From an uncultured bacterium (GTDB lineage: Bacteria > Oederibacteriota > Muellerivitia > Muellerivitales > Muellerivitaceae), in the NCBI GenBank assembly GCA_964529445.1, contig CAZGWJ010000001.1, positions 14,863-78,862 on the forward strand: 64,000 nucleotides of DNA. The letters are read 5' to 3'. Below, piece after piece: positions 2,232 to 30,804 of the stretch (position 1 is the first letter of the stretch; each line of letters begins with the position of its first letter). The notes beneath the pieces were generated by a model. That model made no database searches. It saw only the letters and a list, made by a program, of their open reading frames with translations, and was not told the origin of the DNA. The translations under genes and the position numbers were made by a program.

Positions 2232-3245
2232 TCAGTAGCCGTCGGGATCGGGGACGATCTTTCCCCTGAACGTCCGATACACCCAGGCCGTATAGAGGAT
2301 CACCAGCGGCAGGCCGAGTCCCGCGATGACCAGCATGATCCCGAGCGTCTTCGGCGAGGACGCGGAGTTCAGGACCGTCAGGCTGTTCGCGGGCGAACCC
2401 AGGGAGTAGACCATCGAGGGGTACAGGGAGGAGAAGAAGAAGGCCAGGGTCAGCACGATGGCAAGGGCGGAGGCCAGGAAGGCCCCGAAGGGTCGTTCTC
2501 GAACGAGGAAGGGGATTCCCAAGCCGGCGGCACAGGCCCCTAGGGGAAGGATCAGCAGGAAAGGGCGACTCTCGAAGGCCGTCCGGACCGGATCGGAACC
2601 GGCGATCGAGAGGGCGGTCAGGCCGAGGATGAAAAGGGGGAGGAGCACGCCGCCCAACCGGGCCACGGCCCGGAAGCGTTCCCGCAGAGGGTCCTCGGTC
2701 TTGAGGACGAGGTAGAGGGACCCGTGCACGGCCAGGACGCAGACCGAGGCCAGGCCGAACGTCAGGGCGAAGGGGTTCAACAGGGAAAGGAAGGTGCCCG
2801 CGAACTCGTGGTCCGGAGCCAGGGGGATGCCCCGTACGAGATTGCCGAAAGCGACCCCCAAGAGGAGCGCGGCCAACGTGCTGCCTCCCGCAAAGGCCAT
2901 GTCCCAGATCGCCCTCCAGGGGGCGGCGTCCACCTTGCTCCGGAACTCGAGGGATACGGCGCGCAGGATGAGGGCGAAAAGGAAGAGCATGAAGGCGAGG
3001 TAGAAACCCGAGAAGACCGTGGCGTAGACGTGAGGGAAGGCCGCGAAAAGGGCGCCGCCACCCGTCACCAGCCAGACCTCGTTGCCGTCCCAGACGGGGG
3101 CGATGGACTGAAGGAGCGTGCGCCGCCCTGTTTCCGTCCGGACGCCGAGGTGCAGGATACCGACCCCGAGGTCGAAGCCGTCCAGCACGATATAACCGAT
3201 GAACAGGAGGGCCACCAGGGCGAACCAGATGCTTTCGAGATCCAT
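2232..3245 (-). CDS. cydB: Cytochrome bd ubiquinol oxidase subunit II
   Basis: Translation from the internal ATG at 3243-3245 gives MDLESIWFALVALLFIGYIVLDGFDLGVGIL..., a typical CydB. The listed ORF 2232..3458 carries a spurious N-terminal extension that overlaps cydA. The start overlaps the cydA stop (ATGA). Confidence 0.9.
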   Translation of the reverse strand: MDLESIWFALVALLFIGYIVLDGFDLGVGILHLGVRTETGRRTLLQSIAPVWDGNEVWLVTGGGALFAAFPHVYATVFSGFYLAFMLFLFALILRAVSLEFRSKVDAAPWRAIWDMAFAGGSTLAALLLGVAFGNLVRGIPLAPDHEFAGTFLSLLNPFALTFGLASVCVLAVHGSLYLVLKTEDPLRERFRAVARLGGVLLPLFILGLTALSIAGSDPVRTAFESRPFLLILPLGACAAGLGIPFLVRERPFGAFLASALAIVLTLAFFFSSLYPSMVYSLGSPANSLTVLNSASSPKTLGIMLVIAGLGLPLVILYTAWVYRTFRGKIVPDPDGY

Positions 3246-4579
3246 CAGGATGCGACCTTTCCCGGGGGTTCGGGTCCCTTCATCACCTTGTGCACGGCGA
3301 GATACACGAAAAGCAGGAAGAGGAGGGAGTAGATGGCTCCGAAAAGGACGAGCGAGAAAAGGACCTCGCCGGCCGTCACGGTCTTTGAAAGGGCGTCGGA
3401 GGTGCGGAGGAGGTTGTACACGATCCAGGGTTGGCGGCCCACCTCGGTGGCGATCCATCCCACCTGGTTGGCGATCTGGGGGAGCAGTAGGGAGGGGACG
3501 AGCGCGAGAAGATAGGGGCGGAATTCAAAGAGCCGGCCCCGCCACCAGAGCAGGAGGCCCAGGAGGGAGAGCCCGATCAGGGCCATCCCGATCCCCACCA
3601 TGAGATGGTAGGCCTGGAAGACGATCTGAACAGGGGGGCGGTCGCCGGGAGGGAATTTTCTCAGGCCCGGCAGATGGCTTTTCGCGTCGAAGGTCACCAG
3701 CCAGCTGAGCATTCCCGGAAGCTTGACACCCCAGACCGTCTCGTTCCTCTCGTCCACCCATCCGAACAGGTACAGGTCGGCAGGGCCGGATTCCGGGTAA
3801 TGGGCCTCGTAGGCCGCGAGTTTGACGGGTTGCGTCGCGGCCACCTGGACGGCATGTCCGTGACCCACGAACAGTTGGAGCAGGGAGGCGAAGGCGGCCA
3901 CCAGGAGGCCGACCTTCAGGCAGGAGCGCGCGAACTCGAGGTGCCGTCTCTGCAGGAGGTAGAGGGCCGCGATCCCTGTCACCACGAAGGCGCCCGTGAG
4001 CCAGCATCCCACGATGACGTGGCTGAATCGGTAAAGGGAAGAGGGGTTGAAAACCATGGCCCAGAAATCGGTGATCTCGGCGCGGGTGGTGCCGTTCCTC
4101 GTCACGAGGGTGTAGCCCGCGGGAGTCTGCATCCAGGAATTCGCCGTGACGATCCAGAACGCCGAAAGGTGCGCTCCCAGGGAAACGAGGAAGGAGGACG
4201 TGAAATACATCCGGGGACCGACCTTTTTCCGGCCGAAAAGAAGGACTCCCAGGAAGGTGGATTCGAGGAAGAAGGCGAAGATGCCCTCGGCAGCCAGGGG
4301 ACTGCCGAAGACGTCGCCCACGAAGCGGGAATATGCGGCCCAGTTGGTGCCGAACTCGAACTCCATCACGATGCCGGAGGCCACGCCCAGGGCGAAGGTG
4401 AGCGCGAAGAGGCGGGTCCAGAACCGGGCCGCCTCCAGGTGGTGGGCCTCGCGGGTCTTCAGGTACAGGGCCTCGAACCACACGATGAAGAGAGAAAGGC
4501 CGATCGAGAGGGGTGGGAATATGTAATGGAAGCCGATTGTCAAGGCGAATTGAATTCGCGAGAGGAGAAGGGCGTCCAT
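3245..4579 (-). CDS. cydA: Cytochrome bd ubiquinol oxidase subunit I
   Basis: 444-aa polytopic membrane protein MDALLLSRIQFALTIGFHYIFPPLSIGL..., a typical CydA N-terminus and Q-loop region. Confidence 0.9.
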   Translation of the reverse strand: MDALLLSRIQFALTIGFHYIFPPLSIGLSLFIVWFEALYLKTREAHHLEAARFWTRLFALTFALGVASGIVMEFEFGTNWAAYSRFVGDVFGSPLAAEGIFAFFLESTFLGVLLFGRKKVGPRMYFTSSFLVSLGAHLSAFWIVTANSWMQTPAGYTLVTRNGTTRAEITDFWAMVFNPSSLYRFSHVIVGCWLTGAFVVTGIAALYLLQRRHLEFARSCLKVGLLVAAFASLLQLFVGHGHAVQVAATQPVKLAAYEAHYPESGPADLYLFGWVDERNETVWGVKLPGMLSWLVTFDAKSHLPGLRKFPPGDRPPVQIVFQAYHLMVGIGMALIGLSLLGLLLWWRGRLFEFRPYLLALVPSLLLPQIANQVGWIATEVGRQPWIVYNLLRTSDALSKTVTAGEVLFSLVLFGAIYSLLFLLFVYLAVHKVMKGPEPPGKVAS

Positions 4580-4657
4580 GGACGATATTCAATCGGTTCC
4601 GGAGGGGAATGTCAACTGGTGCTTGCTGTGCGCTTGGGATCCGGAATCGCCGTCGGA

Positions 4658-5044
4658 TCAGGTGTTGTTGTAGGTGAACCGAATCTCCGGCGGATGCTGG
4701 AGCGTGTGATGGATGGTGCAGGATTCGGCGGCTCGCTGGGCCACTTCCCTGAGATCGGGCGGGAGGCCGGCCGGGAGGTGGACCTGGATGTCGAAGGCGC
4801 CGATGCGGTGGGGTCCTTCGGCCATCGTGCCCGTCACGTCGACGGAAAGGCCGCGGGGTTCGAACCCCTTGCGGCGGAGGAATCTCGCCACGAAGAACCC
4901 GACGCAACCGGCCAGGGAGGCCGCCAGGTAATCGACCGGGGAGGGGTCCGCGGGCTCTCCCGGTTTCTGATCGGTGAAATAGGCATTGCCGCGGGTCCTC
5001 ATCTCCAACTTGTCCTCGCTGATCCAACGGGCGGTTGCTTGCAT
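4658..5044 (-). CDS. OsmC/Ohr-family peroxiredoxin-like protein
   Basis: 128 aa of OsmC-like size with the paired Cys context (LAGCVGFF ... AAESCTIHHTL). It sits 78 nt upstream of cydA on the same strand. Confidence 0.75.
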   Translation of the reverse strand: MQATARWISEDKLEMRTRGNAYFTDQKPGEPADPSPVDYLAASLAGCVGFFVARFLRRKGFEPRGLSVDVTGTMAEGPHRIGAFDIQVHLPAGLPPDLREVAQRAAESCTIHHTLQHPPEIRFTYNNT

Positions 5045-5122: not shown

Positions 5123-5335
5123 TTACTTGTTGCTCTGCTTCGTCGGGCAGGTGGAGATTCCCAATAGCGCGTAGGGCGTGCAGAACTGCAACTGGGCCGT
5201 CAGCAAGGCGGCGGCTCCCGCGATCCACGCGATCCACGCCGCAGTCCCCTGGAGAAAGAACCCAGCGACCACCAGGACGACTCCCACGACGTAACGGACG
5301 ATGCGGTCGGTCCCACCTACGTTTTTCTTGAACAT
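5123..5335 (-). CDS. DUF2892 (YgaP-like) small membrane protein
   Basis: MFKKNVGGTDRIVRYVVGVVLVVAGFF...TAQLQFCTPYALLGISTCP from the internal ATG at 5333-5335, preceded by an AGGAGG RBS. The listed ORF carries a 12-aa extension. Confidence 0.6.
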   Translation of the reverse strand: MFKKNVGGTDRIVRYVVGVVLVVAGFFLQGTAAWIAWIAGAAALLTAQLQFCTPYALLGISTCPTKQSNK

Positions 5336-5357
5336 GACACGCCTCCTGGAACTTGAT

Positions 5358-5687
5358 TCAAAGCGCCGCACCCTGCAACAGCGCGGTCTTCAACGCGTTG
5401 GCGTTGGTGACGCCGATGAACTGCTTCACCGGCCTTCCGTTCTTGAAGACCATGAGCGTGGGGATGCTCATGATGCCATAATGACCCGCCACCTCGGGGT
5501 TCTCGTCGGTGTTGAGTTTTCCCACGACCGCCGTCTCGCCGATCTCGGAGGCCAACTGCTCCACGATGGGGCCCTGCATCCGGCAGGGGCCGCACCAGGG
5601 GGCCCAGAAATCGACCAGGACGGGCTTGTCCGAGTCGATAACATCCTTCTGCCAGCCTTGGGTCGTGAATTCCTTCGCCTTGTTCAT
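5358..5687 (-). CDS. trxA: Thioredoxin
   Basis: [37 protein letters not shown]... with the WCGPC active site, about 109 aa from the ATG at 5685-5687. An AAGGAGGAT RBS lies 6 nt upstream. Confidence 0.9.
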
Positions 5688-5741
5688 GACATCCTCCTTG
5701 GTTTTCCGGGCCGCCACGGCGGGCCGCCCCATGCACGGCTC

Positions 5742-5897
5742 TTACGAATGACTGACCATCGCACCCATCAGCGCCCCGTAGAAGGTGCTGATCCAGGGGT
5801 TCGAGGTGATGGGGCAAGCCCCCGAGGAACAGCCCACCAGCTTGTACCAGGTGAAGCCGAAGAGGGCCCCGATCACGATGCCGGCTGCCAGACGCAT
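5742..5897 (-). CDS. 51-aa membrane peptide with a GCSSGACP motif, hypothetical and below the ORF-track size cutoff
   Basis: Reverse-complement translation gives MRLAAGIVIGALFGFTWYKLVGCSSGACPITSNPWISTFYGALMGAMVSHS*. It has GC-rich codon usage like its neighbours and lies between arsR and trxA on the same strand. Confidence 0.5.
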   Translation of the reverse strand: MRLAAGIVIGALFGFTWYKLVGCSSGACPITSNPWISTFYGALMGAMVSHS

Positions 5898-5914
5898 GGT
5901 TACCTCCATCAGAC

Positions 5915-5925
5915 TATTAGTATTA
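5915..5925. promoter_or_regulatory. 11-bp box TATTAGTATTA, candidate ArsR-family operator, about 20 bp upstream of the small ORF start
   Basis: The identical 11-mer occurs in the opposite orientation at 6258..6268, about 20 bp upstream of the arsR start. Both sit in AT-rich promoter-like context. Confidence 0.35.
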
Positions 5926-5954
5926 ACTTATGAAACTGGGCCGAAAAAAAGGCC

Positions 5955-6239
5955 TCAGGCGTCGCAGAAGATCTCCTTCATCAAGTCCACCAGTTTTCCC
6001 ACCTTCGGGTTGGCCACGTCGTAGAAAGTGCGGTTTCCGCGGCGGGAGGTCTTCAGGACGCCCCGGGCCCTCATCTGCGCCAGGTGCTGGGAAACGTTGG
6101 ATTGGGTGGTCCCCAGGGCCTTCGTGAGGTCCTGGACGTTCCTCTCGCCGTTCACCAGGATGGCCAGAATGGACAGTCGGATGGGATGCGCGATGGATTT
6201 CACGCAATGGGCCGCCATGTCCACCTGGGCTTTCCTCAT
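5955..6239 (-). CDS. ArsR/SmtB-family metalloregulatory transcriptional repressor
   Basis: 94 aa with the HTH signature SIAHPIRLSILAILVNGERNVQDLTKALGTTQSNVSQHL. Confidence 0.85.
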   Translation of the reverse strand: MRKAQVDMAAHCVKSIAHPIRLSILAILVNGERNVQDLTKALGTTQSNVSQHLAQMRARGVLKTSRRGNRTFYDVANPKVGKLVDLMKEIFCDA

Positions 6240-6257
6240 GTCGACCTCCTTATATTA

Positions 6258-6268
6258 GATAATACTAA
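6258..6268. promoter_or_regulatory. Second copy (inverted) of the 11-bp TATTAGTATTA box, upstream of arsR
   Basis: taatactaata is the reverse complement of the box at 5915..5925. It is embedded in ttatattagataatactaatattctattatt. Confidence 0.35.
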
Positions 6269-6320
6269 TATTCTATTATTTGTCAAGGGGCAAATGGCGA
6301 GGATAACGGCTTAATTCAAC

Positions 6321-6395
6321 GCCAACGCGAAGCCGTCCGCCTTTGGCGAGACCTCGCCATCAAGGGTTCTGGATGGCGGGCGAAGTCGCGAAGAA
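6321..6395. repeat. About 75-nt intergenic element, copy 2 (see 1806..1880)
   Basis: gccaacgcgaagccgtccgcctttggcgagacctcgccatcaagggttctggatggcgggc is near-identical to copy 1. The distal part is degenerate. Confidence 0.8.
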
Positions 6396-6512
6396 CTGCA
6401 TGGATCGGAGACGGAAACGGCCTGAGATTGCCACACCTCAGACCACGCCTACCCGCCCTGAGCGAGGCCGAAGGGTCGGCGCTGAGGTTCACAATGACGG
6501 ATATAGCACAAA

Positions 6513-6886
6513 TCAACCGGTCAGTTTAAGTATGCGACCCACCGAGAGATAGGTAAGCCAAAGGCCAATAACGAACAAGAGGATTCCCAGCAGTAGAGTA
6601 ATTGAGGGTCCGGGTGTCATGTCCCATATAAGAACACATAACCATAACCCCCGTTCCATGAGTGAGAGGCCAATTACACCGAACAATACACCCAGAATAA
6701 AATCTTTTATCTTTTTTTGTGCCACAGCTCGCATTCGTTACCGGCCCAGACCTCGTCCGGCCGGTCCTCGATGTGGACCCGCAAATACTGCAGGCCGTCG
6801 ATTTCCTTGATGTTGATGACCTTGCCCACGCCGCGCGTGATCTTGTTGAAAACCTCGTCGTCCGTCTCAAAAGGGAAGTCGCCCAT
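6513..6886 (-). pseudogene. Small membrane protein gene split by a frameshift at an A7 homopolymer (6711..6717). The N-terminal 59 aa and the C-terminal two-TM part are in different frames.
   Basis: Frame A from the ATG at 6884-6886: MGDFPFETDDEVFNKITRGVGKVINIKEIDGLQYLRVHIEDRPDEVWAGNECELWHKKR*. An A8 version would read ...WHKKKIKDFILGVLFGVIGLSLMERGLWLCVLIWDMTPGPSITLLLGILLFVIGLWLTYLSVGRILKLTG. The segment 6500..6720 is AT-rich relative to the genome. Confidence 0.4.
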
Positions 6887-27724: not shown

Positions 27725-27920
27725 GGAACCTTAACTATAACGGTTCACTAAAAGACCCGCGAAGGGAAAAAGGACGTTCGACCTCCGGGCAATCGGGGAT
27801 CCGGACAGAGGTTATTCGTTGTCCAAATGGGGGGCGATTTCCAGGCCCGTTAAAGGAGGGGCATTTGATAGAATAAACATCCGTTTTACAGGGCCATTTT
27901 CTATGTTGGAGGATGATTCG

Positions 27921-30727: not shown

Positions 30728-30804
30728 GGACGTTTAGCTCAGCTGGTTAGAGCGTCGCGTTCACATCGCGAAGGTCGCTGGTTCAAGTCCAGCAACGTCC
30801 ACCA
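30728..30804 (+). tRNA. tRNA-Val (anticodon CAC)
   Basis: GGACGUU acceptor stem, GCUC D-stem, anticodon loop UUCACAU, TΨC arm GCUGG-UUCAAGU-CCAGC, discriminator A, encoded CCA. Confidence 0.85.

Follow-up and report, generated by a model that had tools for sequence, protein, structure and literature searches.

SqrR, BigR and YgaV are ArsR-type repressors whose defining cysteine pair lies in α2 and at the C-terminal end of α5 (PMC8960804). The Escherichia coli member, YgaV, represses ygaVP, of which YgaP is a rhodanese, and cydAB reads go up in a ygaV mutant (PMC9774250); the Pfam family PF11127 (DUF2892) takes its name from the YgaP transmembrane domain. A further ArsR-type protein, RexT of Nostoc sp. 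PCC 7120, senses H2O2 and derepresses trxA2 after exposure to it, and is found in Nostocales only (PMC8960804). A locus that recalls both systems lies in a 64,000-nucleotide (nt) stretch from an uncultured bacterium of the Muellerivitaceae (contig CAZGWJ010000001.1, positions 14,863 to 78,862), which is referred to below, at its full length, as the window. Here, as a preliminary description of this DNA correctly had it, four minus-strand genes follow one another in the order arsR, a 51-amino-acid (aa) open reading frame (ORF), trxA and a DUF2892 gene; an OsmC-family gene and cydAB come next on the same strand. The evidence points to a thiol-stress operon under an ArsR-family repressor that senses by means of its cysteines and not by means of a metal, a reading to which we give a probability of about 0.6. 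The regulator is a variant of the known SqrR/BigR/YgaV type, and the 51-aa product belongs to DUF6132, a known but functionally blank family.

An ArsR-family repressor with two cysteines

The arsR product matches the winged-helix family HTH_5 (PF01022) with an E value of 1.8e-11 and passes the generic NCBIfam subfamily model NF033788 ("metalloregulator ArsR/SmtB"), whose cut-off is 55 bits, with a score of 79. Among solved structures the closest are SqrR (6o8k, E 1.2e-14), BigR (3pqj), YgaV (3cuo), Rv0081, PagR, HlyU and NolR; matches to the metal sensors NmtR, SmtB and CmtR are much poorer than those to the SqrR/BigR/YgaV group. The protein has two cysteines in all. Cys92, within the segment IFCDA, falls in the alignment on the C-terminal cysteine with which SqrR, BigR and YgaV sense their signal, and Cys12 resides in α1, six residues ahead of a conserved His-Pro. 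Both are invariant in the 12 syntenic orthologues (alignment A4) and in 26 homologues with 59-100% identity (alignment A6), across which 70% of the other positions vary. A more distant syntenic homologue, from the locus designated L043 (44% identity), carries the canonical pair of α2 and C-terminal cysteines.

The sites by which metals are bound in other members of the family were not seen in the sequence: α3 has no CxC and reads NVQDLTKALGT, and α5 has no Asp/His/Glu cluster (VGKLVDLMKEIFCDA, which contains no His). The vicinal Cys-Cys pair of the RexT type is likewise absent from it. The repressor is filed here as a variant that would work like SqrR, BigR and YgaV, and not as a strict member of that group, and it is probably switched by oxidation of its two cysteines rather than by a metal. 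The preliminary description had likened the 51-aa peptide to metal- or thiol-handling peptides; the regulator resembles a thiol or persulfide switch, not a metal sensor.

Promoter and palindromic operators

The preliminary description also drew attention to an 11-mer, TATTAGTATTA, present ahead of both arsR and the 51-aa ORF. One copy lies on the plus strand at 5915..5925, as reported there; the other is on the minus strand at 6260..6270, the earlier 6258..6268 having been off by 2 nt. These are the sole two matches in the 64 kb at up to one mismatch, as compared with 0.01 predicted by shuffling, and none of 100 shuffles gave two, so that the possibility raised earlier of a common word is not borne out in the window. 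Against the ~62% G+C of the window, so long a word of A and T alone is conspicuous.

The 11-mer is one half of a 20-bp palindrome, ATATTAG-N6-CTAATAT, in a 7-6-7 arrangement. Upstream of arsR the DNA reads TTGACA, 10 nt, ATATTAG-TATTAT-CTAATAT, AAGGAGG, ATG, and the 6-nt spacer of this site, O1, which has none of its 14 arm positions mismatched, coincides with the −10 hexamer of the arsR promoter, P1. That promoter, TTGACA-16-TATTAT, agrees with the consensus at 11 of 12 positions and is the only strong promoter-like site on the minus strand between 2000 and 7100. The other copy of the 11-mer belongs to a degenerate site, O2, located 17 nt ahead of the DUF6132 start codon; the identical word recurs there because the right arm and the spacer of O2 are intact.

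Both sites have counterparts in 12 orthologous loci, the ArsR proteins of which are 56-64% identical to that of the window. All 12 have the O1 palindrome at the same position, with 0-1 mismatch and with a conserved TTGAC equally far from it. The stretch from arsR to the DUF6132 gene contains a second palindrome (1-3 mismatches), always after a run of seven or eight T residues and a TTG, and the DNA flanking both palindromes is otherwise unalignable among the 12 loci. The right arm of this second site in the orthologues (CTAATA or TAATAA) stands at a −10 position, which suggests a second repressible promoter. Further comparison is afforded by one metagenome-assembled genome (MAG) of candidate division FCPU426 that has two DUF6132 loci. 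One of them, L022 (218..589), has arsR and both operators; the other, L006, has no adjacent arsR, yet carries an operator-like site 36 nt ahead of its DUF6132 gene (3965..3984), and together they suggest a small regulon acting in trans. No further operator copies were found in the 64-kb window at up to four arm mismatches, a three-mismatch match at 27736 being at chance level.

That transcription might end at an intrinsic terminator behind arsR, ahead of the DUF6132 gene, was considered and set aside: the scan called no qualifying hairpin there, and the T-run of the orthologues reads better as part of the upstream portion of a second promoter. From the conserved placement of the palindromes, autoregulation through O1 is well supported; for separate control at O2 the support is good across the clade and weaker in this genome. 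The earlier proposal that the ArsR protein might govern both its own gene and its neighbours is thus supported by comparison, both palindromes being kept in the 12 orthologous loci.

The DUF6132 mini-protein and the genes around it

The 51-aa product matches DUF6132 (PF19628) with 36.8 bits against a cut-off of 23.2, its residues 1-48 aligning with profile positions 6-53 of 60. By its sequence the ORF is a real gene that encodes a full-length, typical member of the family; it had appeared to be "unlisted" only because of an ORF size cut-off. A search of the peptide against domain families, as first proposed in the preliminary description, therefore leads to a family that Pfam has already catalogued, without an assigned function. 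When the gene is compared with its counterparts in eight related loci, substitutions fall mainly at third codon positions (for example 14/6/25), with uncorrected pN/pS of 0.26-0.59, and a GGAGG lies 7 nt ahead of the ATG.

The family is large. A word-indexed search returned 142 homologues, all but one with the PF19628 mark, and a full scan with the profile hidden Markov model against 1.84 billion representatives (E up to 0.001) yielded at least 1,445 clusters at 50% identity. The top 150 of the 1,445 representatives are 51-120 aa long, with a single matched stretch in all but one, which has two, and no domain fusions occur among them. The signature of the family is a near-invariant G-C-x2-G-x-C-P-I-T-x-N-P, and 268 of 271 homologues retain CxxGxC; positions G10, G14, G22, C23, G26, C28, T31, N33, P34, S37, G41 and G45 are invariant in alignment A1. 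The peptide had been quoted exactly in the preliminary description, and its standing as a conserved membrane protein with a cysteine motif is confirmed by these matches. The motif itself had been miscounted as C-x3-G-x-C-P, where the actual spacing is C-x2-G-x-C-P (C23-S-S-G-A-C28-P), and the single transmembrane helix assigned to the peptide gives way to two in the predicted structure.

An AlphaFold2 model built with alignment A1 is a helical hairpin with helices at residues 2-25 and 34-50 (mean pLDDT 77.6), which puts the cysteine pair where helix 1 ends and within the turn. Lys and Arg residues in the homologues average 2.75 in the N-terminal tail, 0.18 in the loop and 1.51 in the C-terminal tail. 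By the positive-inside rule, both ends of the protein are therefore expected in the cytoplasm, with the uncharged cysteine loop at the outer face or within the membrane.

Searches for relatives outside the family gave little. The DUF6132 profile matched no PDB sequence at E up to 10, bd oxidases included, and a Foldseek search of the PDB with the model gave no significant fold match and nothing better than E above 3. In Pfam, at E up to 0.1, the peptide matches DUF6132 alone, plus a sub-threshold glycine-zipper, and none of the DsbD/CcdA or Mer family profiles. DUF2892, another cysteine-bearing two-helix protein in the same operon, was considered as a homologue and rejected, as hhalign gave a probability of 10.7% over 16 columns confined to helix 1. 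A role in anti-phage defence was likewise rejected: the peptide has no PADLOC match, and the matches of ArsR are generic winged-helix ones. Literature searches brought up no publication on DUF6132 or PF19628, the term DUF6132 giving just an unrelated 2011 paper on EamA/DUF6 transporters.

With each GTDB species represented by one genome, a scan gave at least 587 confirmed DUF6132 loci, and neighbourhoods were taken from the best 80 of these. They include members of candidate division FCPU426, Elusimicrobiota, Fibrobacterota, Myxococcota, Latescibacterota, Spirochaetota, Lentisphaerota, Verrucomicrobiota, Bacteroidota and Bacillota, the closest being FCPU426 MAGs with 71% peptide identity. With the window proteins as tblastn queries, an ArsR homologue was found directly 5′ of DUF6132 in ~20 of the 80 loci, a thioredoxin within 450 nt in ~25, DUF2892 in 9, and cydAB in two, namely L043, where it lies beside arsR-DUF6132, and L007, where it is 3.5 kb away. 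The gene order that the preliminary description wished to see conserved is thus conserved to this extent, and homologues with the same cysteine spacing do occur in syntenic loci.

The genes next to DUF6132 on the same strand (77 upstream and 72 downstream) were also matched to Pfam. Upstream, the matches comprise Thioredoxin (17/77), HTH_5 (16/77), Rhodanese (6/77), Thioredoxin_3 and DUF302 (4/77 each) and Pyr_redox_2 (3/77); downstream, Rhodanese and DUF302 are found in 5/72 each and Thioredoxin and Pyr_redox_2 in 4/72 each, HTH_5 and Thioredoxin_3 not being among the 25 families listed for that side. AhpC/Redoxin proteins occur on both sides of DUF6132, and the thiol context of the family spans at least seven phyla.

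Individual loci display this context in various arrangements. The best orthologue, L005, has arsR, DUF6132, trx, a membrane-anchored trx, DUF2892 and rhodanese, the last two of which amount to a split YgaP, and L008 has arsR, DUF6132 and rhodanese. In L094 the order is a TrxB-like reductase, ArsR, thioredoxin, DUF6132, a thioredoxin-like protein, OsmC and a second thioredoxin-like protein, with the thioredoxin gene overlapping the DUF6132 start by 4 nt. Elsewhere the module stands behind an ECF sigma factor and a zf-HC2 anti-sigma factor, followed by thioredoxin, DUF6132 and DUF2892 (L091-L093), or has a divergent ECF/zf-HC2 gene and OsmC beside thioredoxin-DUF6132 (L085). A Flavobacteriales MAG (L088) has DUF6132 followed by two rhodaneses; in a deltaproteobacterial MAG (L084, 4167..5327), a 387-aa fusion of DsbD_TM and thioredoxin starts 17 nt after the DUF6132 gene; and in L013, L024, L070 and L076, DUF6132 lies between a thioredoxin and a class-I pyridine-nucleotide disulfide reductase of ~455 aa. 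The partner thioredoxins of DUF6132 loci have no signal peptide. On the basis of these neighbours and of the motif, DUF6132 is proposed, with low confidence, to sit in the membrane as a dithiol partner to thioredoxin or rhodanese, cycling between dithiol and disulfide or persulfide.

Two details of the partner thioredoxins may be recorded in passing. In the four loci with the disulfide reductase, which are of Latescibacterota type, the thioredoxin ~330 nt upstream of DUF6132 has WCMPC and not WCGPC. In L005 (4521..5793), the 182-aa membrane-anchored thioredoxin has an N-terminal hairpin that is weakly DUF6132-like (tblastn, 29% identity, 5e-05); as a candidate DUF6132 fusion it was rejected, since it lacks the cysteine motif and is not called DUF6132 by Pfam, and it is a mere hint.

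The features of the locus are collected in the table below.

Features of the locus, with positions in the 64-kb window
Feature	Position	Strand	Description
arsR	5955..6239	minus	94-aa ArsR/SmtB-family winged-helix repressor; invariant Cys12 (α1) and Cys92 (C-terminal end of α5)
DUF6132 mini-protein gene	5742..5897	minus	51 aa, PF19628; predicted two-helix membrane hairpin with G-C-S-S-G-A-C-P-I-T-S-N-P at the turn
trxA	5358..5687	minus	109-aa cytoplasmic-type thioredoxin, WCGPC
DUF2892 / YgaP-like transmembrane protein gene	5123..5335	minus	70 aa; FC(T)P...STC
OsmC-family protein gene	4658..5044	minus	128 aa, two Cys; PF02566 at 1.6e-17
cydA	3245..4579	minus	cytochrome bd oxidase
cydB	2232..3245	minus	cytochrome bd oxidase
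Promoter P1 of arsR	6259..6286	minus	−35 TTGACA (6286..6281), 16-nt spacer, −10 TATTAT (6264..6259)
Operator O1	6252..6271		perfect 7-6-7 palindrome ATATTAG-N6-CTAATAT; spacer is the −10 hexamer; includes 11-mer (6260..6270)
Operator-like site O2	5914..5933		degenerate palindrome, 4/14 arm positions off; includes 11-mer (5915..5925)

The trxA product matches TIGR01068 with 121.7 bits against a cut-off of 96.8 and PF00085 at 1.1e-28; it has the WCGPC active site and no signal peptide, and its gene has the Shine-Dalgarno sequence AAGGAGG. The DUF2892 product matches PF11127, the YgaP-like transmembrane domain, with 69.1 bits against a cut-off of 25.3 (3.6e-19), and its Cys52, which follows helix 2, is invariant in an alignment of the DUF2892 proteins from the loci (A5). 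This cysteine of the FCP segment is the only invariant one in A5; the STC cysteine of the window protein is absent from several orthologues, which end in INTYKK.

The gaps ahead of the OsmC gene and ahead of cydA are 78 nt each. Neither an operator copy nor a terminator was found by the site and terminator scans in the gap between DUF2892 and OsmC, and OsmC is probably co-transcribed with the genes upstream; cydAB is presumed, from strand and spacing, to be part of the same transcript. Just ahead of the cydA ATG (4579) on the minus strand (4577..4615) there is a TTGACA (4615..4610) and a GAATAT (4590..4585). The cydA start lacks a Shine-Dalgarno sequence and the −10-like hexamer is just 5 nt from the start codon; conceivably, cydAB may have a promoter of its own and a leaderless transcript.

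Upstream of arsR on the minus strand (6240..6886), ~470 nt have a G+C content of 0.53 as against ~0.62, and the corresponding stretch is left uncalled by gene callers in the loci L001 and L002. Two ORFs lie within it, one of 59 aa (6707..6886) and a hydrophobic one of 73 aa (6513..6734) overlapping the end of the first, and no Pfam family was found for either. A tRNA gene at 30728..30801 on the plus strand is the sole Rfam match in the window.

Alternatives and known systems compared

In the mechanism proposed here, the reduced repressor dimer would bind O1, and O2 where that site is intact, so as to block the −10 region and repress its own gene together with the genes downstream. Oxidation or persulfidation would link Cys12 and Cys92, and the repressor would leave the DNA, as SqrR, BigR and YgaV do by way of their α2/α5 pair. 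Induction would then supply the cytoplasmic thioredoxin, DUF6132, DUF2892, the OsmC thiol peroxidase-like protein and, probably, the cytochrome bd oxidase, with the CxxGxC at the hairpin turn of DUF6132 perhaps coupling cytoplasmic reducing power to a target located in the membrane. The signal could be peroxide or oxygen, or else a reactive sulfur species: the rhodanese of the orthologues favours reactive sulfur, and the OsmC, AhpC and ZAS anti-sigma contexts favour an oxidant. More ambitiously, and on a distinctly tentative footing, DUF6132 could be a new class of two-helix membrane dithiol mini-protein that serves thioredoxin or rhodanese in many mostly uncultured, anaerobic phyla, with the repressor representing an undescribed α1/α5 sensing site within the SqrR/BigR branch. 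Such a protein might act as a minimal relay that hands reducing equivalents, or sulfane sulfur, on to the membrane or through it.

Several observations weigh against this account. In the repressor, the α2 cysteine of SqrR and BigR is replaced by Ala (RLSILAILV, as compared with RLMLVCTLV in BigR), and the score against the NCBIfam BigR equivalog, 66.7 bits, falls below the cut-off of 155. The O2 site of the window has 4/14 arm mismatches, which makes it the most degenerate of the 13 loci, and has lost the −35-like TTG, such that in this genome it may be weak or non-functional. Roughly half of the 80 loci have no thiol-related immediate neighbour of DUF6132, and direct reduction of DUF6132 is not straightforward, because its cysteine loop would face outward or lie within the membrane while the partner thioredoxins are of cytoplasmic type. 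The membership of OsmC and cydAB in the transcript is assumed from strand and spacing alone, these genes having no operator of their own, and the regulatory reading is comparative throughout.

The alternatives take up some of these same points. Small membrane proteins with cysteine pairs are known as metal carriers, and a metal or metalloid system can be pictured in which ArsR senses an ion that the peptide, like MerF or MerT, would bind or carry. The NF033788 match would agree with such a system, as would a few DUF6132 neighbours elsewhere (Methyltransf_31, TerB and outer-membrane efflux proteins). We think it improbable, however, given a repressor that has neither the α3 CxC nor an α5 His/Asp/Glu site and whose closest solved relatives are the non-metal sensors SqrR, BigR, YgaV and HlyU. 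The neighbours of DUF6132 are, moreover, mostly thioredoxin, rhodanese, disulfide reductases and ZAS anti-sigma factors, the operon in the window contains no metal pump, chaperone or reductase, and the peptide matches no Mer family in Pfam. A regulator that senses differently or not at all, of the PagR or NolR type, is about as unlikely; its cysteines would be structural, and control would come from repressor abundance or another ligand. PagR, NolR and Rv0081 are indeed among the solved relatives and the canonical α2 sensing cysteine is missing, but it would then have to be explained why the sole two cysteines are invariant across 26 otherwise variable homologues, why one of the two corresponds in the alignment to the cysteine proven to do the sensing in SqrR and BigR, and why the regulon consists of thiol-redox proteins.

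The extent of the regulon is where a competing explanation carries somewhat more weight, as it seems possible, if rather doubtful, that O1 is the only functional site here, O2 being a decaying remnant and the downstream genes being reached by read-through from the arsR promoter, in which case autoregulation alone would account for co-regulation. The mismatches of O2, the worst of the 13 loci, with a left arm of TCATAAG, fit this possibility, as do the replacement of the orthologues' TTG after the T-run by CGG and the scans, in which neither a promoter-like site ahead of the DUF6132 gene nor a terminator-like hairpin behind arsR turned up. The right half-site and the spacer are intact, however, and a site is present at the same place in 12/12 orthologues and also in L006, which has no arsR. 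That DUF6132 might instead serve cytochrome bd oxidase as a small accessory subunit, much as CydX does, is very improbable: cydAB does follow on the same strand in the window, and L043 (arsR-DUF6132-cydAB) and L007 offer parallels, but cyd genes are nearby in only 3/84 loci, the profile matches no chain of the solved structures, bd oxidases among them, and most loci pair DUF6132 with thioredoxin or rhodanese.

On the thiol-stress reading, the locus provides a candidate role for an orphan family that has a near-invariant cysteine motif and is tied to thioredoxin, rhodanese and thiol-stress regulators, and a membrane dithiol partner of thioredoxin is a testable hypothesis for it. An autoregulated ArsR-type repressor on a −10 hexamer is standard regulatory logic, otherwise textbook; the palindrome in two copies and the two invariant cysteines nevertheless make this repressor a handy system for the shift of the sensing site from α2 to α1 among SqrR/BigR-type repressors.

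Compared with the described systems, the repressor differs from SqrR, BigR and YgaV in having an invariant α1 cysteine in place of the one in α2, and its BigR score is sub-threshold. The SqrR operator is ATTC-N8-GAAT (PMC9774250), as against the ATATTAG-N6-CTAATAT found here, and a literature search for "BigR box" gave no match. In addition, the regulon centres on thioredoxin and DUF6132, and not on the sulfide:quinone reductase or persulfide dioxygenase of the SqrR/BigR group. What is shared with SqrR, BigR, YgaV and HlyU is the conserved cysteine at the C-terminal end of α5, and these proteins are also its best matches by sequence among the solved structures. The likeness to YgaV goes further: that protein is autoregulated, with its operator on the RNA-polymerase recognition site (PMC9774250), an arrangement predicted here from the sequence; the repressor is accompanied in both cases by a DUF2892 (YgaP-type) membrane domain, with a rhodanese as well in L005; and cydAB is tied to the regulon in both.

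The RexT-TrxA2 pair offers a second parallel, in that an ArsR-family repressor without a metal site is paired with a thioredoxin gene, RexT derepressing on thiol oxidation (PMC8960804). RexT uses a vicinal Cys40-Cys41 disulfide, whereas the cysteines here are not vicinal, and no DUF6132 partner has been described for it. The membrane protein itself invites comparison with DsbD/CcdA and MerF/MerT, in which membrane-embedded cysteine pairs beside prolines work with thioredoxin-fold partners; this is an analogy and not membership, as DUF6132 has just two helices and one cysteine pair and shows no sequence or profile similarity to those families. Finally, the window has an ArsR-type repressor instead of a sigma/anti-sigma pair of the SigR-RsrA type, which controls trx genes, but in other phyla thioredoxin-DUF6132, with or without DUF2892, stands behind an ECF sigma factor and a zf-HC2 anti-sigma factor, which suggests that the same module is wired there to a different sensor of thiol oxidation.

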